Assembly: GCA_016708565.1 (NCBI GenBank)
Contig: JADJFN010000001.1
Location: forward strand, 732,863-796,862
DNA length: 64,000 bases
Direction of reading: 5' to 3'
DNA from: Myxococcales bacterium
GTDB taxonomy: Bacteria; Myxococcota_A; Polyangia; Haliangiales; Haliangiaceae
The notes beneath the pieces are model-generated. The model worked only from the letters and a program-made list of their open reading frames with translations. It did no database searches and was not told the DNA's origin. A program made the translations under genes and the position numbers. This document shows, piece after piece, positions 9,612 through 63,900 of this stretch (position 1 is the first letter of the stretch; each line of letters begins with the position of its first letter).

Positions 9612-12595
9612 CACCGGCCTCCCTTGGCCGCGTCGCCGACCAGCTGCATCTTCATCTCGCCGGCCGGGATCTCCATCGCGATCGTCCCGATGCCGATGCC
9701 GATGGCCGACAGCTCCACCGCGAGCGGCACCGCGGCGACGTTGGCCAGCGAGATCTGGATCCGGCCGTCGGCGGTGAAGGCGACCGGGCCGGCGACGTCG
9801 ACGGTGATGGGCTTGCTCGCCAGGTCGTGGCCGGCCAGCCCGGCGAGCAGCTTCATGCTGGGCGCGTCGAGGTACAGCGGCAGGCGGGCCCGCAGCGCGG
9901 CCTGGCCGTCGGCGCCGACGACGATGTGGCTCATCAGGGGTTGCCCGGCCGGCGTGCGCAGCCGCAACACCAGCTGCTGGGTGCGCTGGTCCGACAGCGT
10001 GCCGATCACCGCGACCGTCGCGTTCATGCTGAGCGACGTCCCGTACAAGATCTGCGGCGACAGCTCGACCGGGATGCAAGCGGCGACGGTGGCGCCGTCG
10101 ATCGTGCAGGCGTGCTGCAGCGTCCCCATCGTCACCGGCAGCGCGCCCGACAGGTACATGCAGGCCTCGCGGGCGGGCGTGCCCGGGACACAGTCGGGGC
10201 CGTTCAACGTCGCGCTGCGGACCATGCCGCTGGTGCCGACGATCCGCATCGCCGCGCGGTTGGTGCTGCTGGCCACCTCGCCCGCGTCGAGGACGCCGTT
10301 GCCGTTGCCGTCGGCGACCGGCCACGCGCGGGTGGTCATGGCGTAGCGATCGGCGCTGGCCGGCGCGGCGACGAACGGCAACACCAGGTCGGCGCCGCCG
10401 GCGTCGCCGCGGTCGGCCAGGCCGTCGAGGACGTCGCTGTTGAACGGCAGGCGGTTGCGCCCGCACAGCTCGCCGGCGTCGCAGTCGCCGTCGTCGCCGC
10501 CGTGGATCACGACCCGGTAGCGGGCGCCGGGCTCCCAGCCGCCGTCGGCGATGAAGCTCAGGCGGTCCTCGCCGACCACCAGCCGGCCGCGCGCCACGCC
10601 GGTGCAGGCGCCGCTCGGGTCCAGGCGCTCGACGCGCACGCTGCCGGTGCCGCACGCCGTGCCCAGCGTGACGGTGCCGCGATCGAGCGGCTGCTGGAAC
10701 GTGAGCTCGACCGGCAGGTCGGCCGCCAGCGCGAACGGCGCGTAGCGATCGTCGGACGACGCGCCGTCGCGGCACCGGCCGGGGCTGGTCGCGGTGGCGC
10801 CGTCGAGGGCGCACGGCACGCCGGGCCGCGCCGCGGCCAGCGCCAACGGCGCCGGGGCGCTGGTCGCCAGGTCGACGGTGCGGAAGCCGAGGCGGGTCGG
10901 CGCCGCGGCGGTGCCGGCCAGGTCGCGCACCATGCCGCTGACCTCGAGCGTGTAGGCGGCGCCGTACGCCAGCGGCTGGCGCGGCGTGACGATCAGCGTG
11001 CTGCCGTCGACCCGCACCCGCACCGGCACCGCGGCCGCGCCGGTCAGCGTGACCGCCCCGTCGCGCGTGGCCGCGGCGGCGTCGAGCCCCTCGGCGAACG
11101 TCACGCGCAGCGCGGCGTCGGCGGGGACGTCGCGAGCGCCGTCGGCCGGGAACGTCGACGTGACGCGCGGCGGGGCGTCGTCGCCCGGCGCGGCGCGCGC
11201 GGTGGTGGTGCTGAGCCGCAGCACCATGTTCGACGTCGCGCGATCGAGGCCGAGCAGGTCGAGGTCGAGGCCGCCGACGCTGTCGATCTCCAGTCCGCCG
11301 TCGTAGATGCGGGCCAGGCCGGTCGCCTGCACGCCGAGCACCTGCTGGTTCAGCGCGGCGTTGCCGACGGCGTCGGACGCGGTCACGACGACGTCGAACG
11401 CGAGGTAGGCCGCGACCGGCGCGAGTTCGTCGTCGGGGAGCCGCGCGGGATCGCGGAACGGGTTGCGCGCCAGATAGACGGTGGCGTCGGCGGCCATCTG
11501 GACCTGCAGCGGGCCGGTGGTGAGCGGCGTGGCGATCTCGCCGCCGAGCTTCACCGGCAAGGGTTGCATCGTCAGGCGTTGGCCCTTGCGCAGGGTCAGC
11601 GGGATGAGCGGCCCGAACCCGGCCGGGTTGGCCATCACCGCGGCGAGCGTGTTGTCGACCATCGCGATCGTTGCGTCGCCGATCAGCGGCGCGGTCAGCT
11701 CGACCTGGTTGATGAAGCCGCCGGCGGCGTACGACGGCTCGCGGCCGGGGATGCACGCCAGCACCTGCGCGAGCTCGCGGCCCCCGACCCGCGACGGCAG
11801 CGGCGCCAGCTCGAACGCCACCGGCGCCAGCGCGTCGCCGCTCAGATCGTGCAGCCCCGCGCCGAGCTCGAGCCGGTAGCGCGGGCTGTTGGTCAGGTCG
11901 GCGACCGGATCGATCGTGAGGTGCGGCCCCTGGGTCAGCAGCGCGGCCTCGACCAGCGCGCCGTCGGCGTCGACCAGCCGGACGGTGTCGCCGTAGACGG
12001 CGGTGGCGGGATCGAGCGGCTCGCTGAGCGCGACGCGGATCGTCGTGAAGTCGACGAACGGGAAGCGCGGCGTCGCGCCGCTGCCGGCGACGTACGCGGC
12101 CGGGTCGTCGCCGTTGACGGCGATCACCGTCGGGGCGCGGCCGCCCAGCGACGTCGGGTTGCCGGCGGTGAACCGCACGAGCGGCGCCGCCGCGTCGAGG
12201 TTCGTCGCCTTGCCCCACAGCACCGCCGGTCGGACGAACACCTCGTACGTCGCGCCAGCCTCCCAGGCCGCGCTCTCCAGGAGCACCACGTTGTCCTTGG
12301 GCCCGGCGACCAGCACCGGCGTCGCCACCAGGCCGCCCGGGCCACGGACGCAGAACGCACCGACGACGCCGCCGTCGGCGCCGAGCGAGCACCCCGCCGT
12401 CACCGCCGCCACGTCGACCGGGTCGGTGAAGCTCACGACCAGCCGGGCGCCCAGCGGGACGTCGCGCTGGCCGTCGTGGGGATAGCTGAAGATCACGCCC
12501 GGCTCGCTGGTCAGCGGCGGCGGGCCGTCCTCCCCGACCTCGCAGCCGGCGGTGGCGATCAGGACGGCAGGCCAGAGACGACGCCAGTGGACCAT
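9611..12595 (-). CDS. large surface lipoprotein with tandem bacterial Ig-like (SbsA-type) domains
   Basis: Signal plus lipobox MVHWRRLWPAVLIATAGC; repeated Ig-like modules (...RDVPLGARLVVSFTDPVDVAAV..., ...RDVPADAALRVTFAEGLD...); stop overlaps the start of the beta-barrel gene. Confidence 0.7.
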   Translation of the reverse strand: MVHWRRLWPAVLIATAGCEVGEDGPPPLTSEPGVIFSYPHDGQRDVPLGARLVVSFTDPVDVAAVTAGCSLGADGGVVGAFCVRGPGGLVATPVLVAGPKDNVVLLESAAWEAGATYEVFVRPAVLWGKATNLDAAAPLVRFTAGNPTSLGGRAPTVIAVNGDDPAAYVAGSGATPRFPFVDFTTIRVALSEPLDPATAVYGDTVRLVDADGALVEAALLTQGPHLTIDPVADLTNSPRYRLELGAGLHDLSGDALAPVAFELAPLPSRVGGRELAQVLACIPGREPSYAAGGFINQVELTAPLIGDATIAMVDNTLAAVMANPAGFGPLIPLTLRKGQRLTMQPLPVKLGGEIATPLTTGPLQVQMAADATVYLARNPFRDPARLPDDELAPVAAYLAFDVVVTASDAVGNAALNQQVLGVQATGLARIYDGGLEIDSVGGLDLDLLGLDRATSNMVLRLSTTTARAAPGDDAPPRVTSTFPADGARDVPADAALRVTFAEGLDAAAATRDGAVTLTGAAAVPVRVRVDGSTLIVTPRQPLAYGAAYTLEVSGMVRDLAGTAAAPTRLGFRTVDLATSAPAPLALAAARPGVPCALDGATATSPGRCRDGASSDDRYAPFALAADLPVELTFQQPLDRGTVTLGTACGTGSVRVERLDPSGACTGVARGRLVVGEDRLSFIADGGWEPGARYRVVIHGGDDGDCDAGELCGRNRLPFNSDVLDGLADRGDAGGADLVLPFVAAPASADRYAMTTRAWPVADGNGNGVLDAGEVASSTNRAAMRIVGTSGMVRSATLNGPDCVPGTPAREACMYLSGALPVTMGTLQHACTIDGATVAACIPVELSPQILYGTSLSMNATVAVIGTLSDQRTQQLVLRLRTPAGQPLMSHIVVGADGQAALRARLPLYLDAPSMKLLAGLAGHDLASKPITVDVAGPVAFTADGRIQISLANVAAVPLAVELSAIGIGIGTIAMEIPAGEMKMQLVGDAAKGGR

Positions 12596-19799: not shown

Positions 19800-20135
19800 G
19801 ACAGGCCTCGACCTGGTGGCACGACTTGCACGTGCGCCCGCCCGGTATCAAGCCGGGTGCTCTGCTGCTGAGCTACACCAGGGCACGAGGCTGTGGCCTC
19901 GCGATCCGCGCGCGGTGGCTGCCCCGCAGCCACACCACGCACCGATGCACGCTAGCTAACACGACGCCCGGCGCGCACGCGAGCGAAATCGCCGCGCCGG
20001 TCGCCGGTGGCGCGTCGCGGCAGAAGGCGGCAGCGGTGGGCGCGGCGCGGGACGAACGGCCGGCCGGCACTCCATCCACGCGTCGACGGCGGGCCCGGGG
20101 AATGGACCTCGGGCCACGCCGCCTTGGAGCCACCC

Positions 20136-28933: not shown

Positions 28934-29626
28934 ATGGCCTCCAGACGCGCGATCCCGGAGCTGGCTCCTCGGAAGCGGCCCACGCAGGCGCGGGCGCAGC
29001 GGACCTACCGCGCGATCGTCGAGGCCGGGGCTCGGGTCCTGGAGCGCCACGGCTACGAGGCGCTGACCACCAACCGGGTCGCCGAGCTGGCCGGCGTCGG
29101 GATCGCGTCGCTGTACGAGTACTTCCCCAACAAGCACGCGCTGACCGCCGAGGTCGTGCGCCATGTCCTCGACGGCTTGCTCGCCGAGCTCGGCGCGAGC
29201 ACGCAGCTCATCACCGGCGCGCCGCCCGAGGACGCGATGCGGGCGTGGCTCGGGGCCATGTACGCCGCCGTCGCGAAGCGCCGCGCGGTGGTCCGGGTGA
29301 TCGTCCAGGAGGTGCCGTTCCTGTGGGCCATCCCGGCCGTCGATCAGGCGCGCGCGCTCCTGCTCGCCCTCGCGCGCTCGACCCGCGACCTCGACGCCCG
29401 CGCCCGCCGCGCGCCGCCGCTGTCCGACGCGACGGTCTACCTGCTCGCGACGATGACCGGCGCCGCCGTGCTCGAGGCCGTGCTGCGCCCGCCCGCCGAT
29501 CACACGCCTGACGAGCTGATCACCGCGCTGGCCGAGGTCATCCTGCGCGCCACGGGCCAGCCGCCCGCGCCGCGCCGCGCGCCGCCCCGGCGTGGTCCAC
29601 GGACGACGGGCGCGCGCCGCGCCTGA
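28934..29626 (+). CDS. TetR/AcrR family transcriptional regulator
   Basis: HTH LTTNRVAELAGVGIASLYEYFPNKHAL; divergently arranged with the MpaB-like gene. Confidence 0.8.
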   Translation: MASRRAIPELAPRKRPTQARAQRTYRAIVEAGARVLERHGYEALTTNRVAELAGVGIASLYEYFPNKHALTAEVVRHVLDGLLAELGASTQLITGAPPEDAMRAWLGAMYAAVAKRRAVVRVIVQEVPFLWAIPAVDQARALLLALARSTRDLDARARRAPPLSDATVYLLATMTGAAVLEAVLRPPADHTPDELITALAEVILRATGQPPAPRRAPPRRGPRTTGARRA

Positions 29627-30525: not shown

Positions 30526-30715
30526 GCGGCCTGGCGCTACCCGTGGCCGCCCAGGCTCACCGCCTCGATGGGATCCGGGACGTCCTGCGCGTCGTGCTCG
30601 AGCGCCAGCGCGAGCGCGTCGCCGCGCCGGTCACCGCGGGCGCGCAACCACGCCGCGTCGCGCGCGTGTCCGTCGCCGCCGTCGAGCGCGGCGGCGAGGC
30701 GGCACGGCGCGTGCT

Positions 30716-38482: not shown

Positions 38483-41437
38483 TCAGTCGTCGGCGATCGC
38501 GGTGAGCGAGCGCTCGACGCCGCGCGCGAGGCCGACCGTCACGGTGGTGCCGGCGGGCACCTGGAGCAGGTCCCAGCCGAGCTCGAGGCGCAGGCCCTTC
38601 ACGTCGTGGCCGTCGACGGTGACGATGGTGTCGCCCGCGACGAGGCCGGCCTGCGCGGCGGGCCCAGGGCTCACTTCGCTGATCGTGAGCGCGCGCGTCC
38701 GCGGATCGGCGTCGGGCGCGGGCTGCACGAACGCCCAACCGAAGTCGCCCGGCCTGCCGTCGTCGCCGCCCCGGCGCTCGACCATGGGCACGTCGCCGAC
38801 GTCGTGCACGGGGCCGCCGGTGAGCTCGACGATCCAGCGGACCAAGGGCCACCGCGCTTCGCGCTCGGCGTTCAGGCCGACGACGTAGACGAGGCCCGCG
38901 GGCGCGTTCGGCACGGTGAAGCGGCCGCCGGCGTCGCTCAGCTCGGCGCCGTCGCCCCCCGCCGCGATGGACGGCACGCCGGCGCCCGCGCCGGCGGTCG
39001 GGGTGACGGTCGCGCGGACGCCGGGCACGGGCGCGCCCGTCGCGAGGTCGACGAACCGACCGGTCACGGTGCGCTTCGCCCCGAGGACGAGCGCGACGCC
39101 GGTCCGGTCCTCGCCGGCGGCGAGCGGCACCGTCGCCTGCACGCGGCCCGCGGCGCTGTCGACGGCGACGACGAACGCGCCGGCCGGCAGGTCGCGCACG
39201 ACGAACGCGCCGCCGGTGCGGGAGAAGCGCTCGCGCCGCTCGAAGCCGGTCTGCACGTCGGCGACGGCGAGCTCGAACGTTTCGGGCGCGCCGCTGCTCG
39301 CGACCGTGACGGTGCCGGCGATCGAGCCGGTGCTCAGGATCGTGAGCGTCGTGTCGCTGCCGGTCGCGACGTGCTCGACCGCGGCCTCGCCGCCGCCGCG
39401 CCGGTACGCGCGCACCGTGTGGCGCCCCCGGCCGAGGCCGCCGACGGTGAAGCGGCCATCGGTGCGGGTGAGCACCGGCCGATCGGTGCGGCCCCACGTC
39501 CAGCGGGTCTGGCGCACGCCGGCACCCGCCGCGACCCCCGGTCCGTCCGGCTCGCGCACGGCGACGACCCACGCGTCGCCCACCGGTTCGCCGCGCGCGT
39601 CGTTCACGACCCCGGTGATCGCGCCGTCCTGCGCCTCGACGACCAGCCGCACGGTCGCGGTCTGCCCCGCGACCACCGTGACCGGCTCGCCGCGGTCGTC
39701 GCCATCGGCCGCGCCCGGGCGTTGCACGGGCTCGAACCTGCCGCGCGACACGGTCACGCGGTGCGGGCCCGGCTCGACGCCGTCGATGCGGAACGTGCCG
39801 TCATCACCGGTCGCGACCCCGCCGTCGAGCATCCGGATCTCGGTCGAGACCCGCACGCCGGCCACCGGCTGGCCCGCCGGATCGACGACGATCCCGGCGA
39901 CGGCGCCGCTCGCCGGAAAGACGATGTCGGCGGTGGAGCCGCCGCCCGGCGCGACGGTCACCGTCAGGGGCGGCGCTGCGTCGACCTGACCGTTCACGCT
40001 AGCCTCGAGCTGGTAGGTCCCGCCTCGCAGGCCGGTCAGGCGATAGACGCCGTCGTCGCCCGAGCGCGCGAACGCGCCCGGGAAGAACTCGCCCGCGTCC
40101 GTGGCCCGCGCCGACACCCACGCGTCGCCGAACGGCGCGCCGGCGGCGGTCCTGACCGTGCCGGTGATGACGGCGCCCGGCGTCACCGTGAGGATCAGGT
40201 CCGCGTGGTCGGCGCCGGCGGCGACCTCGACGGGCGGGTACTTCTGCTGCGCGGCCTGGTCGTTGCACCTGACGCGCACCTCGTAGCGCCCCGGCACGAG
40301 TGACAGGATCGCGAAGGTCCCGTCGAGCTCGATCGAATCGGTCGCGCGTGCCCGCGATGCCGCATCGGCCAGCATCACGGCGCCGCGCGGACACGGCTCG
40401 ACCTTGCCCCCGCCGCGATCGATCACCACGGTGCCGCGCACGCGGCTCGCCGGGTGTACGACGACCACGACGCCGTCCACGTGCTGGCCCAGGCCGAGCA
40501 GCACGCTCTCGCCGGCTTCGCCGCGGTAGCCGTCGCCCGACGCGACCGGCTTGTAGCGCCCGGGGACCAGCCGCGTCAGACGGAAGCGGCCCTGCGCGTC
40601 GCTGCGCGTGCTCGCCCCCGGCTCGCCGTCGTCGTCGCCGGCGACGGCGACGATCGCGCCGTCGACCGGCCGCGCGTCGCCCGCCGTGACGACCGTGCCC
40701 GACAGGCTCGACTCCGGCGTCAGCAGGATCTGCGCGCGCGCGGTCGGCGCCGACACGTCGCTGTCGCCCGGGGCGTATCCGTCTGCGTGCGCGCCGAGGT
40801 GGGCCGGACCCGGCGCGGTCCACAAGGCAAAGCGTCCCTGTTCGTCGGTGCGAGTGGTCGCGGCGACACCGACCACGGTCCCCGCCGAGATCGCCACCAG
40901 CGCGCCGACGATCGGCCCCCCGCTCACGTCCTCGACGGTGCCGCTCACCTTCACGCCGCCGGGCGGCAGCGCGAAGTCCACGCCGGTGCGCACCTCGCCT
41001 GGCGCGAGTCGAAAGCTGTCGAGCTCGCCCAGCGCGTTGAGCCACGGCCGCGCGAGGTGCCCGGCGGCGCTCGCGGCGAGCGCGTGGCGCACCGGCAGGA
41101 GGTCCTCGAGCGCGTACGCGCCGGCGGCGTCGGTCGTCGCGCACGGCGGCGCGCGCCACTCGTCGGAGGCGAGGCCATCGGTCGCGAAGCGCGAGCACAC
41201 CTGCGCGCCGGCGATCGGTCCGCCGCCCGCCGTGCGTACCGTGCCGCGGACCGCGGCGCGCGGCTGCGTGCGTGGATCGTTCGGCGCGGTCTTCCCGGCC
41301 GCGCCGCGCGCGCGACCTCCCGCGACCTCGGCGCCGGCCGCGCCGCGCGGCTTCGACGAGCGAGCGCGATCGCGCCGCCACCACAGCGCGACCAGGACGA
41401 CGAGCAGGGCGACCACGATCGCGACGATCCGCTTCAC
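38483..41437 (-). CDS. membrane-anchored protein with about five carboxypeptidase-regulatory-like (transthyretin-fold) domains and a C-terminal PDZ domain
   Basis: N-terminal TM helix MKRIVAIVVALLVVLVALWW; repeats GTVEDVSGGPIVGALVAI, GTVVTAGDARPVDGAIVAV and GIVVDPAGQPVAGVRVS; PDZ segment LTISEVSPGPAAQAGLVAGDTIVTVDGHDV. Confidence 0.8.
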   Translation of the reverse strand: MKRIVAIVVALLVVLVALWWRRDRARSSKPRGAAGAEVAGGRARGAAGKTAPNDPRTQPRAAVRGTVRTAGGGPIAGAQVCSRFATDGLASDEWRAPPCATTDAAGAYALEDLLPVRHALAASAAGHLARPWLNALGELDSFRLAPGEVRTGVDFALPPGGVKVSGTVEDVSGGPIVGALVAISAGTVVGVAATTRTDEQGRFALWTAPGPAHLGAHADGYAPGDSDVSAPTARAQILLTPESSLSGTVVTAGDARPVDGAIVAVAGDDDGEPGASTRSDAQGRFRLTRLVPGRYKPVASGDGYRGEAGESVLLGLGQHVDGVVVVVHPASRVRGTVVIDRGGGKVEPCPRGAVMLADAASRARATDSIELDGTFAILSLVPGRYEVRVRCNDQAAQQKYPPVEVAAGADHADLILTVTPGAVITGTVRTAAGAPFGDAWVSARATDAGEFFPGAFARSGDDGVYRLTGLRGGTYQLEASVNGQVDAAPPLTVTVAPGGGSTADIVFPASGAVAGIVVDPAGQPVAGVRVSTEIRMLDGGVATGDDGTFRIDGVEPGPHRVTVSRGRFEPVQRPGAADGDDRGEPVTVVAGQTATVRLVVEAQDGAITGVVNDARGEPVGDAWVVAVREPDGPGVAAGAGVRQTRWTWGRTDRPVLTRTDGRFTVGGLGRGRHTVRAYRRGGGEAAVEHVATGSDTTLTILSTGSIAGTVTVASSGAPETFELAVADVQTGFERRERFSRTGGAFVVRDLPAGAFVVAVDSAAGRVQATVPLAAGEDRTGVALVLGAKRTVTGRFVDLATGAPVPGVRATVTPTAGAGAGVPSIAAGGDGAELSDAGGRFTVPNAPAGLVYVVGLNAEREARWPLVRWIVELTGGPVHDVGDVPMVERRGGDDGRPGDFGWAFVQPAPDADPRTRALTISEVSPGPAAQAGLVAGDTIVTVDGHDVKGLRLELGWDLLQVPAGTTVTVGLARGVERSLTAIADD

Positions 41438-41600
41438 CGGTCGACCCTAGCGCGGCTCGCGCGCGCGCCGGATCGCGAACGCCGCGACGCAGGGGGCGAC
41501 CGTGGATCGGTCACATCAGGCTCCCTTCCTACCGAGTGACAGCCGATCGGCGCGGCCGCGCCAGCGCGTCGCCGCGCCGGTCACCGCGCGCGCAACCACG

Positions 41601-41667
<67 letters not shown>

Positions 41668-42009
41668 GTGCGGGGGCGCGTTCGGGCGGCCTACCGCTCC
41701 GTCCAGCGGGCCCGCGGGGGCGGCGGAGCACCAGACCCCTACGCGACCATCACGCTCAATGGGACAGCGCTGGGGATGACGGCGGCCGCGCAGGACATCT
41801 TCAACCCGATCTGGAACATGGCGACGAGCCCGACGAACATCCCCGCGGGCAGCACACTCTTTGTGGATGCCTACGACGAAGACATCGCGGAGGACGACCC
41901 CATCATGCGTTGCCAGTTCGCTCCCCTCACGGCCGACTTGCTGCACGTCGGCGAAGGGGTCTGCTCCGGTGCGATCGGTACGCTGACCGTCCGCTTCTCG
42001 ACCAACTGA
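41668..42009 (+). CDS. N-terminally truncated C2-domain-like ORF immediately after the poly-G tract
   Basis: ...PDPYATITLNG...DIFNPIWNMA...LFVDAYDEDIAEDDPIMRCQFAP matches the C2 pattern DPYVK..L / NP.WNE / V.D.D....D..IG. In-frame GTG at 41668. A/T-ending codons are unusually frequent for this window. Confidence 0.4.
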   Translation: MRGRVRAAYRSVQRARGGGGAPDPYATITLNGTALGMTAAAQDIFNPIWNMATSPTNIPAGSTLFVDAYDEDIAEDDPIMRCQFAPLTADLLHVGEGVCSGAIGTLTVRFSTN

Positions 42010-42030
42010 CGCATCGTCGACGGTCGATCT

Positions 42031-42057
42031 GGACCCGCCCAGTCGCAGCCACCCGGA
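42031..42057 (+). repeat. left copy of an imperfect ~27-nt direct repeat flanking the nuclease-helicase gene
   Basis: ggacccgcccAGTCGCAGCCACCCGGAtcgg versus 45551..45576 ggtccgccgAGTCGCAGCCACCCGGAgggg; the 17-nt core is identical. Confidence 0.55.
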
Positions 42058-42095
42058 TCGGGGCTGATGCCGCGCGAGCCGGGCCGAGGGCGTCG

Positions 42096-45000
42096 TCAGC
42101 CCGGCGCCAGCAACGCGAACGCCTCGTAGAGGACGGCGGGCAGCGGCGCGTCGAGGTGCCAGGTGATGGCGATCGGTCGATCGCCGTCGTGGCTGCGGTA
42201 GGTCGCGCCGCCCAGGAAGACGTAGGGCTCGTCCTTCGCGGTCTGCACGAACAGGAAGAAGCGCCAGCCATTGGTCGCGCTGTCGAGGTACCGCCGCCCG
42301 GCGGCGCTGGCCACCCGGGTGCGACCTTGGGTCTCCCACAGGAACAGGTCGCGGCTGATCGCGCGATCGCGGTAGCTGGTGGTCGGTGAGAAGTTCCCGC
42401 TCGACTTGTCGAGCGTCACGAACAGGAGCTCACGGCGCGACGCGTCGAGCTTGAGGATGCCGGCCTGCGGCACGCTGATCTTGTCGCCGCTGGCGCGATC
42501 GCCGACCGCGGTGACGATCTCGTAGCGGCTGTAGCGCCGGTGCAGCGCCAGCGGCCAGTCGGCCTCGGGGTAGACGTCGCCCGCGAGCCCGGGCTTGTCC
42601 TCGAGCACGGCGGTCAGCTCGCGCAGCTCGGCCCGGACCGCCGGGCGCGCTCGGTACCAGTCGGCCACCTCCTCGGCCGCGCGCAGGACGCCGCGCTTCT
42701 GGAGCTGCGCGTCGAGCATGGCCAGGCGGCGCGCGTCGAGCGGCCCCGGGGGTGGCGCGCCGTCGTCGGTGAGCGCGCGGTAGCGGCGGAGCCGCGTCGG
42801 TTCGTCGACGTGGCACAGCCGGCCGAGCCCGCGGCTCGCGAGGTCGGCATCGACATCGGGGGCCGCGAGGCCGGCGGCGACCTGGACGTCGCGCCACCCG
42901 GCGTCGCCGGTGTACACGTCCTCGAGGGGGCGCCCGGTCTCGCGCAGGAACCGCGTCAGCGTGACCGGCGCGCCGTCCGGCTCGGCGGTCGCCCGCTCGT
43001 GCAGCTCGTGCAGCTCCCGCAGCTCGCGGCCGAGGCGCGCCACGCCTCGGCCCAGCGTGCGGCGCAGCGAGTCGAGCACCTGGTCGCGGGCCACTCGATC
43101 GAGCTCGAGCGCGCAGCCGCTGGGCAGGTGCGGGAAGCCGTGCTCGATGGCCTCGCGTAGCCGCGGCCGCGGCAGGCCGGTCAGCGTCGCCAGGATCGCG
43201 TCGTACCGGTACTCCTCGCGGTGCTGGCCGATGAAGTCGAGCACCAGGCACGCGGTCTTGCCCGGGAACAAGCGCAGGCCGCGGCCGAGCTGCTGCTGGA
43301 ACAAGGTCGCGCTGGCGGTCGGGCGGAGGAGCAACAGCACGTCGACGAACGGCAGGTCGACGCCCTCGTTGTACAGGTCGCACGTGAAGACCAGGTTCAC
43401 CTCGCGGTCACGGAGCCGGCGCCGCACGTCGTCGCGCAGCGCCGCGGGGCTGCCGCCATGGACCGCCACCGCCGGCACGCCGAGCGCGGTGGCCTGCGCG
43501 GCCATGTACTCGGCGTGCTCGACGCTCACGCAGAAGCCCAGCCCCCGCACCGCGCGCAGGTCGGCGACGCGGCGCGCGAGCTGCGCCACCACCAGGCGCG
43601 CCCGCGCCTCGTTGCCGGTGTAGAGCCCGGCCAGCGCCGCGGCGTCGTAGCCAGTGCGGGTCCAGCGCACGCGCCGCAGGTCGGTGCCGTCGGTCAGGCC
43701 GTAGTACTCGAACGGCGCGAGGAGCTGCTGCGCCAGCGCGTCGGGCAAGCGCAGCTCGGCGGCGATGCGATCGTCGAAGTCCGGCAGCAGCGACTGCCCG
43801 TCGCTGCGCTCGGGGGTGGCGGTGAGGCCGAGCAGCAGCTGCGGGCGCAGCGCCCGCAGGACCGCCTGGTACGAGGGCGCGGGCAGGTGATGGCACTCGT
43901 CGATCACCACGTAAGCGAAGTGCTCGGCGCCGAGCTGGTCGAGCAGGCGCCCCGCGCTCTGGATGGTCGCGAACACGTGGTCGCCGCGCGCGATCGTCGC
44001 GCCGCCGGCGATCAGCTCGCCGAACCCGCCATCGAGCAGGACCTCGCGGAACGTGTCGCGCGCCTGCTCGACGATCTCCACCCGGTGCGCCAGGTACAGG
44101 AGCCGCGGCGGCGCCGCGGGCGCCTGACGCGCGTAGTCGAACGCGGCGATGACGGTCTTGCCCGTACCGGTGGCGGCGACCACGAGGTTGCGCGTGTGGC
44201 CGCGCTCGACGCGCTCGGCGCGCAAGCGGTCGAGGATGATCTGCTGATACGGGTACGGCTGTGGCGCCAGGCGGCGCGGCGCGGGGCGCGGCGCGGCGTC
44301 GCGTTGGAGCGCGCCGGCCAGCTGGTCTCGGTGGGTCGGGTCCCGCGGATCGTAGCGCTGGAATTCCGGATCCTGCCAGAGGGTCTCGAAGGTGCCGGCG
44401 AAGTGGTCGATCACGTGCGGCAGGTCGCCGCTGGACACCTTCACCACCCACTCGTGGCCGGCGCCGAGCGCCGTCGCGGTGAGGTTGGCCGAACCGACGT
44501 ACGCCGTGGACAGGCCGTTGGCGCGGTGGAACAACCACGCCTTCGCGTGTAGCCGCGTCCGGCGCGTGTCGAACGACACCTTCACTTCGGCGCCGGGCAG
44601 CTCGGCCAGGCGGTGCACCGCCTCGACCTCGGTGGTGCCGGTGAAGGTCGTGGTCAGCACGCGCAGGCGGGTGCCGCTCGACGCCAGCGCCAGCTGTCCG
44701 AGCGCGTCGGCCAGCACGCGCACCCCGCCGATGGTGATGAACGCGACGATGACGTCGACCCGATCGGCGCTGGCGATCTCGCGGCGCAGCTCGGAGGCCA
44801 GCCCCGGCTCGAGCGGGCCGCGGGTGAACAGGGTCGAGGCGGTGAACGTCGAGTCGGGACGCAGCGGCCTCGGCCCCGTCCCCACGGCCCACAGCTGGCG
44901 CGGCGGTGGCAGCAGCCGCTGCGCGCGGATGGGCCCGGCGTCGCCATCGTCGAACGCCAGGGTCGTCGCGATCTCCGCCAGCACGCGCTCGACCAGCGCC

Positions 45001-45191
45001 GAGCTCGCCGCGACGCGCGCGTGCTCGTCGAGCGCCGCCAGCGCCCGTCGCACCTCGGTGGCGACCAGCCGCGCGACCTCGCCCGGCAGCTGATCGGGCC
45101 GCAGGTCGCGCAGCTCGGCCACGGACTCGCCGAGCGCCTCGGCGAGCGCCTCCGTCAGCGGATGCTCGTACAGCCCTGGCGCCAGCGGCAT
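42096..45191 (-). CDS. PLD-family nuclease + SF2 (ResIII/DEAD-like) helicase + DUF3427 fusion protein; putative restriction/defense-like enzyme
   Basis: HKD motif RLHAKAWLFHRANGLSTAYVGSANLT; Walker A VVAATGTGKT; DEAH-box VVIDECHHL; motif III LGLTATPER; C-terminal ~250 aa DUF3427-like (ISRDLFLWETQGRT...FVFLGGATY). Start at MPLAPGLYEHPL. Confidence 0.85.
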   Translation of the reverse strand: MPLAPGLYEHPLTEALAEALGESVAELRDLRPDQLPGEVARLVATEVRRALAALDEHARVAASSALVERVLAEIATTLAFDDGDAGPIRAQRLLPPPRQLWAVGTGPRPLRPDSTFTASTLFTRGPLEPGLASELRREIASADRVDVIVAFITIGGVRVLADALGQLALASSGTRLRVLTTTFTGTTEVEAVHRLAELPGAEVKVSFDTRRTRLHAKAWLFHRANGLSTAYVGSANLTATALGAGHEWVVKVSSGDLPHVIDHFAGTFETLWQDPEFQRYDPRDPTHRDQLAGALQRDAAPRPAPRRLAPQPYPYQQIILDRLRAERVERGHTRNLVVAATGTGKTVIAAFDYARQAPAAPPRLLYLAHRVEIVEQARDTFREVLLDGGFGELIAGGATIARGDHVFATIQSAGRLLDQLGAEHFAYVVIDECHHLPAPSYQAVLRALRPQLLLGLTATPERSDGQSLLPDFDDRIAAELRLPDALAQQLLAPFEYYGLTDGTDLRRVRWTRTGYDAAALAGLYTGNEARARLVVAQLARRVADLRAVRGLGFCVSVEHAEYMAAQATALGVPAVAVHGGSPAALRDDVRRRLRDREVNLVFTCDLYNEGVDLPFVDVLLLLRPTASATLFQQQLGRGLRLFPGKTACLVLDFIGQHREEYRYDAILATLTGLPRPRLREAIEHGFPHLPSGCALELDRVARDQVLDSLRRTLGRGVARLGRELRELHELHERATAEPDGAPVTLTRFLRETGRPLEDVYTGDAGWRDVQVAAGLAAPDVDADLASRGLGRLCHVDEPTRLRRYRALTDDGAPPPGPLDARRLAMLDAQLQKRGVLRAAEEVADWYRARPAVRAELRELTAVLEDKPGLAGDVYPEADWPLALHRRYSRYEIVTAVGDRASGDKISVPQAGILKLDASRRELLFVTLDKSSGNFSPTTSYRDRAISRDLFLWETQGRTRVASAAGRRYLDSATNGWRFFLFVQTAKDEPYVFLGGATYRSHDGDRPIAITWHLDAPLPAVLYEAFALLAPG

Positions 45192-45550
45192 CGCCCGATG
45201 ATAGGAGCTCGCGGCGCTGCCGTCAGGGGTCGGCGCGCCTGTTGGCGCAGCGTCTGCGGTGATGGACGCCGGCGGCGACAGGGCGCGCAGCCCTGGTTCC
45301 ACCCGGTCGGCCGCGGATTGTCGAAGCTCGCCGAGATGGTCGACGCGCTCAACCCCTGCGCCTTCACCGCCGGCGCCTTGGCGACGTAGTCGAAGATGTG
45401 CCCGGCGTCGTCGGACGCGCAGCCGTTCTTCTCGGTCCACGACCGGGTCCCGGCGTCGGTGCGTTGCCCGCCGCTCAGGTCGCGCTTGTCGACCGTCCGC
45501 GGCCGGTCCGGTCGGCCGTCGCCACCGCCGGCAGCAACGTGAGCGTGACC

Positions 45551-45576
45551 GGTCCGCCGAGTCGCAGCCACCCGGA
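45551..45576 (+). repeat. right copy of the direct repeat flanking the nuclease-helicase gene
   Basis: Same 17-nt core AGTCGCAGCCACCCGGA, about 3.5 kb from the left copy. Confidence 0.55.
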
Positions 45577-45601
45577 GGGGGCGCCGCCTACTCGCCCCTG
45601 G

Positions 45602-45928
45602 TCAGGCCGCGCCGCTGCGACGGTAGTCGAGGAGCGCAACCTCCAGCGCCGCGGCCAGCTCCTCGTCATCGCACTCCGAGATCGCGCTCTGGGAGAAGGT
45701 GGCGACGAGGTCGGCGGTGCCAGCGCGAAACACCGGGCCGTCCTCACGACGAAACAGGCACACGTCGAAGCGATGGTTGCCCGTGTCATCCACCAGCTGG
45801 AAGCGTTCGAGGAGGGGGCCGAACTCGGCGGGCTGTGCCCTCAGCTGGGCGAGGCGTGGGCCCAGCTGCGCTGCCAGCACGTCGTCGACCTCGCTCAGCG
45901 GCGGAAAGGGAACGGGGCGAAGTCGCAC
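45602..45928 (-). CDS. small hypothetical protein (~108 aa)
   Basis: GTG start; the C-terminal part of ORF 45602..46489 (...FQLVDDTGNHRFDVCLFRREDGPVFRAGTADLVATF...) is protein-like while the rest is Arg-rich noise. Confidence 0.35.
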   Translation of the reverse strand: MRLRPVPFPPLSEVDDVLAAQLGPRLAQLRAQPAEFGPLLERFQLVDDTGNHRFDVCLFRREDGPVFRAGTADLVATFSQSAISECDDEELAAALEVALLDYRRSGAA

Positions 45929-46098
45929 GGGGCGAGGATAGCCTCGCGGTCGAACGGGCGGTCCGATCGGGGCACCGGACGCGGCGGATCCGTCGGCGGC
46001 TGTTCCGGTGGCCGTGTTCCGGTGGGCCGCGACACGAGCCCCGTCGCCGCGCCCAGCGCCGGGCAGATCGAATCGGCCGGCGAGGCGTCGACACGGAC

Positions 46099-46530
46099 AT
46101 GCGGTGTTCGACGGTCCGGTTGCGTGCGCTCGGCCTCGCGCTCCTGGTCCTCGGCTGCCGGGCCACCAGCCCACCGTCGCGCGCGGGCCCCGCACCGGCG
46201 AGCGAGGCGGCCGTGGCGGTAGCCGGGGCACCGGCCGGGACGCCGGTCGATCCATGGCAGGCGTGCGCGGTCGACGACGACTGTGCCGTGGTGGAGATCG
46301 ACCGCGGCGCGTGCGACCTCTGCGCGAACACGTACGCGGTCGCGCGCGGGCGAGCCGACGAGGCGCGCGCGCGCGCCGCGCTGACAGAGCCGGTCGAGGT
46401 CTGCACGGATCGCGATCACTCGTGCCCGGCGGCGACCGCCGCCTGCGTCGACGGCGCCTGCGCGCTGCAGGTCCCCGCCGACCCGCCACGCGCGGCGCGC
46501 CGCTGGTTCAACCCGCTGCCGGCCCGCTGA
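46099..46530 (+). CDS. small Cys-rich lipoprotein, hypothetical
   Basis: MRCSTVRLRALGLALLVLGC lipobox; 10 Cys in about 143 aa. Confidence 0.5.
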   Translation: MRCSTVRLRALGLALLVLGCRATSPPSRAGPAPASEAAVAVAGAPAGTPVDPWQACAVDDDCAVVEIDRGACDLCANTYAVARGRADEARARAALTEPVEVCTDRDHSCPAATAACVDGACALQVPADPPRAARRWFNPLPAR

Positions 46531-51120: not shown

Positions 51121-51158
51121 CCGGCGATCCGATCGGCGCCCGGCGATCCGATCGGCTG
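51121..51158 (+). repeat. tandem duplication of ccggcgatccgatcggcgc (x2), a member of the GATCGGATCG repeat family
   Basis: Seen directly in the sequence. Confidence 0.7.
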
Positions 51159-51174
51159 CGACTCGTCTCGCAGG

Positions 51175-52239: not shown

Positions 52240-52295
52240 GCGGCGTAGCCTAGCCTGGGGCCGCGGTGGCAGCCGATCGGATCGCCGGCTCCGCG

Positions 52296-53418: not shown

Positions 53419-54225
<807 letters not shown>

Positions 54226-58024: not shown

Positions 58025-58650
58025 CGCCGCAGTTGCCGGGGTCTGGCGCGAGCTCGCCGTCAGGACAGGCACAGCTGCTGGCCTGGACGTGGACACAGCA
58101 GAACAGCGGGGGGCCGACATCTGCAGCGGTGCGGGCAGGGCCATGGCATCGGCGCTCAGGGCCCACCGACTTCATGGACGTAGACGTCGACGCCGAACCC
58201 GTCGCTCGTCCCGTCGACCGTGCCGGCGATGCCGCGCAGCCGCGTGGCAGCCGATCGGATCGAGGGGCCGAGGCCGCGGCCACGGCCCGACGCGCGCTGT
58301 CCGCCGTGCTGGAGGCCGCGCGCGTCGACGTTGGCTTCTGCATCGAGGTGGCGCCTGAGCGTAGGGCGCCCTGACTGGGTCGACTTTGCCGCCGCCGCCC
58401 GGCGCGCGTGCTCGCCGCGCTGATCCAGAGGGTGGCCGACCAACGTGAGTCGAACATCGGATTCCTCGCCCTTCCGGGGTGAAGCGCGCCGGACGGGGGG
58501 CTGGCAGAAGCACTCCGATCCGCTTGGCTGCGAATCGAACCGGCGGGGCGAATCGAACCGGCGGCTTCAGTCGATCGGTCCGAGTTCTGCGCGCCGAGCG
58601 TCGGCGCCACGCAATCCGAGCGATGGCGTGCGCGTGTTACCATCGGCGCC

Positions 58651-59595: not shown

Positions 59596-60042
59596 GCTGG
59601 CGATTCGGCGATTCGCGCCCTGTGCGATTCGCGCCCTGTGTGCCGGGTTGCGGCACTGGTCTTGATCCAAGGGCCGCGAGCTGCGCGCCGATGGCCCGTT
59701 GCGCCTCGGGGCTTGGCTGCCCGCCGCTGCCGACCCAGAGGTCGCGGACGCGCGCGGCGATATCGACCAGCGCGATCGTCCGCTCGGCCTCGGCGCGCAA
59801 GCGCATGATCGCCAACGCGTGGTTGCCGGCGGCGTGGATCTCGGGCGCGCCGCCGACGGCCTCGCCGGCGAAGCGATGCGGGCCGACCTCGGCCGCGGCG
59901 CGCGCGAGCACCGGCGTCATCGCCGCGGCGAGGTCGTGGCCGAGGCCGGCGTGCGGTTGCGTGGCGGCGGGAGATGCTGGCGCGGGTGCCCGCGTTGCGA
60001 AACCTTGACACGCTCGCGCCGCCGTCCATCATCGAGGTATCC

Positions 60043-61891: not shown

Positions 61892-62004
61892 GGGCGGCGG
61901 CGATGTCATCGGAGTGCAGTCAGCGACAGTCATGGTGCCACGGCGTATCGGCCGCGTGCGGCCGCGGTTGCCGGTGATCTTCGTCCCGAGGGGCGCGGTC
62001 GTCC

Positions 62005-63153: not shown

Positions 63154-63711
63154 TCACGGCAGCGCGGCGCGGAGGAAGCGGACCAGCAGATGGTCCGGCT
63201 CGTCGCGTTCGATCACGAGTTCGTGGGGCCACGCGGCTGCGGCGGCACGGGTCGAGGTGGCGACGCCCTCGAAGGAGACGCTGGCGCCGTAGATGCCGCC
63301 GTGGCGGCCGTCGGCGGGCAGGGCGGCGAGTGGCGTGCGCGCGTAGGCGGCGGCGACGCTCCCCGGGGCCTGCCGCGCGTAGAGCAGCCACGGCCGGCGC
63401 TCGATGATCGCGTAGTCGCGAGCGTCGCCGGGGAAGTGTTCGCCGCTGCCGGGTCGCGGCGCGTCGCCGAGCAGGTCGAGGTCGGCCAGGGTCAGGTGCG
63501 CGTAGCTGCGGCCCTCGCAGAAGTCTGCGACGAGCGTCTTCGCGGTGCCGAACCTCAACCCGCACATCCTGCGCAGGGCCGCCATGACCTTGAGGGGGCC
63601 ATGCCGCTCGCTCCGCAGCGCGCCCAGGACATCGTCGAGCGTCGCGCCGGCCTGGAGATCGGCGCGGATGCGCCGCGCGAGCTCTGCGATCTCTTCAAAG
63701 ACATCGGCCAC
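63154..63711 (-). CDS. hypothetical protein
   Basis: 185-aa non-repetitive ORF, MADVFEEIAELARRIRADLQAGATLDDVLGALRSERHGPLKVMAALRRM... Confidence 0.45.
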   Translation of the reverse strand: MADVFEEIAELARRIRADLQAGATLDDVLGALRSERHGPLKVMAALRRMCGLRFGTAKTLVADFCEGRSYAHLTLADLDLLGDAPRPGSGEHFPGDARDYAIIERRPWLLYARQAPGSVAAAYARTPLAALPADGRHGGIYGASVSFEGVATSTRAAAAAWPHELVIERDEPDHLLVRFLRAALP

Positions 63712-63900
63712 GGCGTGAGTGTACGGCGGAGCGGGCCAGGCCGCGGCGACCGCCTCTTGAAGAATGCTGGCCGGGAGCTCATGGTCGAGCCGTGGGCAAC
63801 GAGCGCGAGATCAAGGAGATGCTGAAGGAGGCCGTGGAAGCGCTCGAGCGCCCGGGCGTGGCCTTCGCCGACGTGCTCGCCACAGCGTCTGCGCCCGCAT

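Follow-up and report, generated by a model that had tools for sequence, protein, structure and literature searches.

A solitary chromosomal gene of Myxococcales probably encoding a SauUSI-family Type IV restriction endonuclease, and the short direct repeats beside it

A stretch of 64,000 nucleotides (nt) from a Myxococcales bacterium (GenBank assembly GCA_016708565.1, contig JADJFN010000001.1, positions 732,863 to 796,862 of the forward strand), referred to here as the window, was analysed around a gene of its reverse strand that encodes a protein of 1031 amino acids (aa) and is bracketed by two copies of a short direct repeat. The gene is most probably a solitary chromosomal member of the SauUSI family of Type IV restriction endonucleases, and the repeats most probably are not the junctions of a cassette; a probability of roughly 85% is given to this reading. 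The protein is an uncharacterised addition to a described family, already deposited and recognisable by standard defence-annotation models. The features of the locus are collected in Table 1.

The 1031-aa open reading frame (ORF) reported in a first-pass annotation of the window was found as described, and its translation contains RLHAKAWLF...VGSANLT, GTGKT, DECHH and TATPER. A phospholipase D (PLD) nuclease and a superfamily 2 (SF2) helicase had been read from these motifs, next to a C-terminal DUF3427-like domain, and the Pfam search agrees: PLDc_2 (aa 137-272), ResIII/DEAD (311-462), Helicase_C (550-640) and DUF3427 (878-1025) were each matched above the Pfam curated cut-offs. This domain architecture was observed directly. 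The ATPase core contains motifs I (GTGKT, 342-346), II (DECHH, 431-435), III (TATPER, 457-462) and VI (QQLGRGLR, 633-640), and their residues are invariant in an alignment of 37 homologues with the exception of L635, which is kept in at least 90% of them.

The proposal that the protein is a single-polypeptide nuclease-helicase of a defence type held as well, and its family is the SauUSI type. The PADLOC model mREase_IV PDLC03659 (Type IV methyl-directed restriction) was matched nearly end to end with 698 bits (E 3.4e-210), from aa 109 to 1022 of the protein and over positions 14-936 of the 945 in the profile. When the PDB was searched with phmmer, the best match was the SauUSI structure 7clg (245 bits, E 1.2e-71), trailed by RadD (103 bits) and XPB, both of them in the ATPase core only. 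In the 7clg alignment H215, K217, N236 and E247 pair with H119, K121, N139 and E150, the catalytic residues of SauUSI (PMC3141236), and these four predicted catalytic residues are invariant in 37/37 homologues. The C-terminal domain aligns with SauUSI 802-916, and there F924, V925, D942 and W952 pair with F841, I842, D858 and W868 of the modelled 5-methylcytosine (5mC) pocket of SauUSI (PMC7913695); all four are invariant or nearly so across the 37 homologues. That the catalytic residues and the ATPase motifs are conserved, and the pocket for the most part, is a plain reading of these alignments. As far as sequence can tell, every defining feature of the SauUSI family appears to be present in the window protein. 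The SauUSI-type family is widespread (PMC7913695, PMC6765204), and more than 7,000 database proteins were matched at E <=1e-20. Other assignments were tried and rejected, these being PLD_Helicase or phospholipase-D antiphage systems, DrmC, PbeA, ZacB, Type I HsdR and RadD, all with just partial, sub-threshold matches.

The fold points in the same direction. An AlphaFold2 model was built on the 37 homologues, with the highest confidence in the PLD, coupler and C-terminal domains; in the DUF3427 domain the predicted local distance difference test score (pLDDT) is mostly about 85-92, dipping around residues 930-941. When the model was searched with Foldseek, chain 7clg_A was the top match and the sole one over the full length (E 1.5e-38, 936 columns). 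RadD structures rank second by sequence and by fold, and the Foldseek match to RadD comprises the ATPase core only.

No partner gene was identified, and this absence too was observed directly. Pfam searches of about 29 neighbouring ORFs, covering approximately 17.5-64 kb of the window, found no methyltransferase, integrase, transposase, recombinase or defence-family domain, and PADLOC gave no match in the adjacent genes or in the haplotype-specific genes described below. A defence island was not visible around the gene in the Pfam and PADLOC searches of its neighbours. In five lineages the gene is located amid differing, partly housekeeping neighbours with no partner in common.

The mechanism proposed for the protein is drawn from the work on SauUSI (PMC3141236, PMC7913695, bioRxiv 10.1101/2025.10.16.682607). 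The protein would dimerise through its N-terminal PLD nuclease domains, and the C-terminal DUF3427/SRA-like domain would flip 5mC or 5-hydroxymethylcytosine of incoming DNA into a hydrophobic pocket. Recognition of the modified cytosine would turn on the central SF2 ATPase, which would move the enzyme along double-stranded DNA until the PLD dimer cuts both strands some way from the recognised base, and further rounds would shred the foreign DNA. The host would be spared by not carrying the target modification, so a partner methyltransferase would not be needed; that none was found in the ORFs searched is consistent with such a partner-free mechanism.

Among the known systems, SauUSI is the closest. 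Both proteins combine in one polypeptide an N-terminal PLD nuclease, an SF2 DExH translocase, a coupler and a DUF3427/SRA-like domain, both contain the catalytic H-K-N-E set, the ATPase motifs and 4/6 of the modelled pocket residues, and neither has an adjacent methyltransferase. They differ in that SauUSI comes from a Firmicute host, whereas the window protein belongs to a Myxococcales genome with 75% guanine plus cytosine (GC). The PADLOC profile PDLC03659 is a family model that covers the window protein nearly over its full length, although the first 108 residues fall outside the profile and the match says nothing on substrate. The DUF3427-PD-(D/E)XK enzymes (McaZI and YenY4I groups) and the SRA-HNH enzymes (ScoA3IV) share a DUF3427 or SRA-type sensor of modified cytosine and are often encoded by stand-alone genes (PMC6765204), but their nuclease fold is another one and they lack the helicase motor, hence they are not ATP-dependent. 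The SF2 helicases of RadD and XPB type and the Type I HsdR motors share the RecA-like ATPase core; they lack the PLD nuclease and the DUF3427 domain, and their scores are far under the family cut-offs.

The surroundings of the gene were compared in ten conspecific assemblies, found through cluster members of the restriction protein and through a relic ORF located upstream of its gene. The downstream copy of the repeat is present in 10/10 of them and is a constant element of the spacer that follows the gene. The upstream copy was identified in the window and in L077 (Logan ERR1356702; 98.9% identical over 4276 nt), which is an independent short-read assembly carrying both copies; the repeat pair is therefore not an assembly artefact. 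In eight conspecific assemblies (L003-L008, L072 and L073) the site of the gene is unchanged and the downstream copy is the only one present, and in L003-L008 the gene block and the downstream spacer are 99.2-99.8% identical to the window.

Directly 5' of the promoter of the restriction gene, strains differ in the segment that they carry: there are three alternatives, and the upstream copy lies in one of them. The first (haplotype A) is a segment of 752 nt with sharp breakpoints, found in the window and L077 only, and its sole similarity elsewhere is the repeat (22/23 nt). Six assemblies have instead 1487 nt (L003 3060-4546) with a gene for a 435-aa protein that gives a weak DUF6896 match, and two have about 3.2 kb (L007 6744-9933) with genes for 757 and 93 aa and remnants of the 435-aa gene. 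Two ORFs were identified in the haplotype-A segment. The small one, predicted as a gene of 92 aa in L077, has no Pfam or PADLOC match. The relic ORF, which follows right after the repeat copy, has a GC content at third codon positions of 0.90-0.98 at 45250-45400; its homologue P0254, 89% identical over the first half, carries PF13930, and P0253 (from L077) is 99% identical. The relic ORF is in frame with the upstream 92-aa ORF, one TGA lying between them, and may be an orphan toxin/immunity remnant.

Between species the comparison gave different limits. The L001 homologue is 91% identical in amino acids and 90% in nucleotides, and the DNA that it shares with the window is 42056..45216; for L002 the shared DNA is 42100..45216. 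In both, the similarity stops about 25 nt upstream of the gene and 0-40 nt downstream of it. The upstream limit at 45216 is 335 nt away from the upstream repeat copy. The flanks of the gene are unrelated in four other lineages (L001, L002, L074 and L076), the neighbours in L074 and L076 being partly housekeeping genes, and the 17-nt exact core of the repeat is absent from these four loci. An empty site was not found; the closest homologue of the CotH neighbour (92%) is on a contig of 2.9 kb, and the next is at most 59% identical. From the conspecific and the between-species comparisons together it follows that no mobile unit is bounded by the repeats.

The repeat itself had been described as about 27 nt long. 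Its coordinates and its spacing to the gene (38 nt from the stop codon, 359 nt from the start codon) were reproduced, but the version of 27/26 nt needs an indel of 1 nt. What is exact is the 17-nt sequence AGTCGCAGCCACCCGGA, found twice in the same orientation (42041-42057 and 45560-45576), and the ungapped match reaches 25/28 (42035-42062 against 45554-45581). On the strand of the restriction gene both copies read CCGGGTGGCTGCGACT; the downstream copy lies 38 nt and the upstream copy 25 nt past a stop codon.

That nothing but chance made the two copies alike in DNA of 75% GC, with neither origin nor function in common, is doubtful, yet it deserves serious consideration. Direct exact pairs of at least 17 nt are frequent in the window, 46 being found when a Markov model of order three predicts about 10; the other exact direct pairs include at least eight that are spaced 2-6 kb. 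In a collection of species representatives of 596 Gb, from which the source genome was left out, the 17-mer gave 63 single matches in unrelated genomes and phyla. A significant hairpin was found at neither copy (folding z-scores of 0.15 to 1.31, both strands), and at the repeats there is no terminator-like site and no Rfam match. The local test argues the other way. A pair of flanks of 500 and 300 nt, 3.1 kb apart, was slid along the window in 600 placements, and an exact match of 17 nt was reached only in 3 of them, all on this locus, with 16 nt in 3 and 15 nt in 4. The value of 17 nt is the maximum and is confined to this locus, so the pair is locally unusual. Coincidence is further opposed by the extension of the match to 25/28, by the location of both copies 25-38 nt past a stop codon on the same strand, and by the likeness of the downstream copy to a motif family of the window. 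A shorter shared motif, CCGGGTGGC, which haplotypes B and C also have 5' of the gene, was considered and discarded, a 9-mer being at chance level in this composition.

The motif family in question is the 18-nt sequence GATCCGATCGGCTGCSAC, which contains the palindrome CCGATCGG and has 13 matches in the window with at most 3 mismatches when 0.59 are expected; none of 100 shuffles reached 13. It is exact at 51145-51162, 52266-52283 and 58244-58261, and matches with 2-3 mismatches are at 41536, 42042, 54722, 56721, 57782, 58517, 60871, 62090 and 63109. Most copies are intergenic, often 17-45 nt past stop codons and often in tandem pairs about 20 nt apart. The downstream repeat copy is among the 13 matches (15/18) and is probably a diverged copy of this dispersed intergenic motif; the upstream copy agrees in 13/18. 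The motif could be an operator or an element of the repetitive extragenic palindromic (REP) kind. With REP-like dispersed motifs it shares the short length, the high GC, the partial palindrome, the intergenic location after stop codons and the tandem pairs; it differs in that the two repeat copies form no significant hairpin and that the 13 matches were counted in the window only.

Some movement of the gene by recombination at such motifs can be imagined. The restriction gene, about 25 nt of promoter and a 3' tail of about 40 nt would then be a minimal unit with no recombinase, relocated among Myxococcales chromosomes by recombination at short intergenic motifs containing GATC. The downstream limit of the L001 similarity at the edge of a motif copy speaks for it, as does CGCCGATCGCC, located there in L001; the proposal is nevertheless considered very improbable. 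If it were true, the gene would be a fixed anchor between strain-variable DNA, with three upstream haplotypes, toxin-domain relics included, and three downstream structures.

The first-pass annotation had proposed a mobile restriction or defence cassette of 3.5 kb that had entered by transposition or site-specific recombination and whose 27-nt repeats would be attachment (att) sites or a target-site duplication. An origin of the repeats of either kind is ruled out, and the cassette is given hardly any credence. The repeat is real, locally unusual and reproduced in L077, the DNA on either side of the gene is unrelated in other Myxococcales genomes, and the downstream limit of the L001 similarity (42056) is at the edge of the downstream copy; yet the eight conspecific assemblies with the gene at this site have a single copy, and the upstream copy is inside a replaceable segment. 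The repeats do not coincide with the boundaries of the unit either, the between-species similarity ending at 45216 and at 42056 or 42100 and the upstream copy being in a separate strain-specific segment. Orthologous loci containing the gene without flanking repeats, which would speak against the cassette, were found, with one copy in the conspecific assemblies and no 17-mer in L001, L002, L074 and L076. In addition, the downstream copy agrees with the dispersed motif in 15/18 positions. Typical target-site duplications are much shorter than 27 nt. Finally, no recombinase was identified in the ORFs searched, the only transfer RNA gene of the window (19810-19882) is about 22 kb away, and the GC content over the gene (0.70-0.78) is like that of its flanks, with no shift in composition in a window of 74.6% GC.

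Least probable of all is a role in DNA repair or housekeeping, as a helicase of RadD or XPB type, in place of one in restriction: the NCBIfam RadD model is matched (E 2.1e-35) and RadD structures are the second-best matches, but the score of 122 bits falls short of the curated cut-off of 720, the strongest part of the match (aa 515-659) is inside the ATPase core, as are the PDB and Foldseek matches, RadD has neither the PLD nuclease nor the DUF3427 domain, SauUSI matches the full length, and the location of the gene is not conserved among lineages.

Several points count against a solitary SauUSI-family enzyme with repeats that are not cassette junctions. The identity to SauUSI is approximately 22-30%, and the counterparts of its M829 and Y831 in the pairwise alignment are Q909 and G911, so the recognised modification or its sequence context may differ. 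An N-terminal helical extension of about 90-110 residues, typical of the clade, has no counterpart in SauUSI or in the PADLOC profile. The structure model is of moderate confidence (mean pLDDT 69.9, predicted TM-score 0.43), and, since its domains are oriented otherwise than those of 7clg, it reaches only a low global TM-score to that structure (0.25-0.29). Activity, modification specificity and sequence context would be those suggested by homology to SauUSI. As for the repeats, the two copies are more alike to each other (25/28) than either is to GATCCGATCGGCTGCSAC, and the unrelated flanks at up to 90% nucleotide identity in other Myxococcales make some lateral movement plausible.

The restriction gene seems to have a short promoter of its own, from which it would be transcribed. 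The protein starts with the ATG at 45191 and is encoded in a single reading frame. This start is supported by the similarity to homologous loci of other genomes, which begins just about 25 nt 5' of the ATG, by the invariance of Y8 and T13 near the N-terminus in the 37 aligned homologues, and by the GenBank protein MBK7071315.1 (Myxococcales metagenome-assembled genome, contig of 1.74 Mb), which has 1031 aa and is 100% identical. The sigma-70-like candidate CTGACG-17-TATCAT is the sole promoter-like match within 41400-46200 (0.0 expected). Its end 7 nt before the ATG suggests an autonomous transcript, possibly leaderless or with a very short leader. The candidate segment is identical among haplotypes A, B and C, and its -10 region is kept in L001 and L002. 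Truncated restriction proteins are found in some assemblies (cluster members P0246, of 709 aa, P0249 and P0250) and could be contig ends or inactivated alleles.

Table 1. Features of the restriction gene locus; positions are those of the window.
Feature	Position	Strand	Basis and remarks
Poly-G run, 64 nt	41603..41666	+	Strain-variable site
C2-domain lipoprotein gene, 3' part	41677..42009	+	Convergent with the restriction gene; Pfam C2, E 5.4e-05
Downstream (left) repeat copy	42031..42057	+	38 nt past the stop of the restriction gene, in the 86-nt spacer between convergent genes
Probable SauUSI-family Type IV modification-dependent restriction endonuclease gene	42096..45191	-	1031 aa; ORF and translation
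DUF3427/SRA-like putative target-recognition domain, C-terminal (aa 878-1025)	42117..42560	-	Pfam DUF3427, E 1.8e-18
SF2 DExH helicase-like ATPase (aa 311-660)	43212..44261	-	Pfam ResIII, E 4.8e-33; Helicase_C, E 2.2e-09
PLD/HKD nuclease domain (aa 137-272)	44376..44783	-	Pfam PLDc_2, E 6.8e-09
Sigma-70-like promoter candidate CTGACG-17-TATCAT	45198..45226	-	3' end 7 nt before the ATG
Relic ORF	45260..45571	-	First ~36 aa of Endonuclea_NS_2 (PF13930) nuclease-toxin domain, then unrelated sequence
Haplotype-A-specific segment, 752 nt	45289..46040		blastn block structure, sharp breakpoints; window and L077 only
Upstream (right) repeat copy	45551..45576	+	25 nt beyond the stop codon of the 92-aa ORF; haplotype A only
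Small ORF, ~92 aa	45602..45880	-	In the haplotype-A segment; reading-frame GC pattern supports coding

The significance of the gene is small beyond annotation. The GenBank label "DUF3427 domain-containing protein" can be replaced, and an enzyme of this kind would hinder the introduction of Dcm-methylated plasmid DNA into uncultured or hard-to-transform Myxococcales. In genomes of 75% GC, short repeats that bracket a gene should be compared across populations or by synteny before att sites are seen in them. The poly-G runs of the window point to likely errors in the source assembly.

The poly-G tract that the first-pass annotation had noted near the downstream repeat copy is a run of 64 nt, and a second one is located at 53797-53807 and 53809-53842 (11 and 34 nt). 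Long G runs were identified only in the window and in L002 (9624-9649, 26 nt, and 9806-9817, 12 nt), both NCBI metagenome-assembled genomes, the latter with accession prefix JADJ; no poly-G was seen in the ten conspecific assemblies, nor in L001 and L074-L076. At the site of the first run L007 has about 785 nt, and a clean deletion is seen in L003-L005, L073 and L077; poly-G is missing from all of these. Probably the runs are artefacts that arose in assembly or polishing, at sites that vary among strains. The first one truncates the C2-domain lipoprotein gene, which encodes 217 aa in L007 (13183-13836) and is reduced to a 63-aa remnant after a deletion of 820 nt in L003 (7826-8017).

Other repeats of the window are apart from this locus or next to it. 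The 45-nt stretch that precedes the poly-G run (41555-41602) is near-identical, with one indel, to 30605-30655; the two are 5' of two different genes, and the pair looks like a duplicated promoter or 5' region. Further exact direct repeats, 2-5 kb apart, are at 29524 and 34383 (35 nt), at 62002 and 63900 (28 nt), and at 59635, 62059 and 62078 (20 nt), possibly the 5' ends of paralogous genes. In L001, a relative of the gene family at 63154-63810 of the window adjoins the homologue of the restriction gene, with 81% identity over 109 nt between L001 13238-13345 and window 63772-63879.

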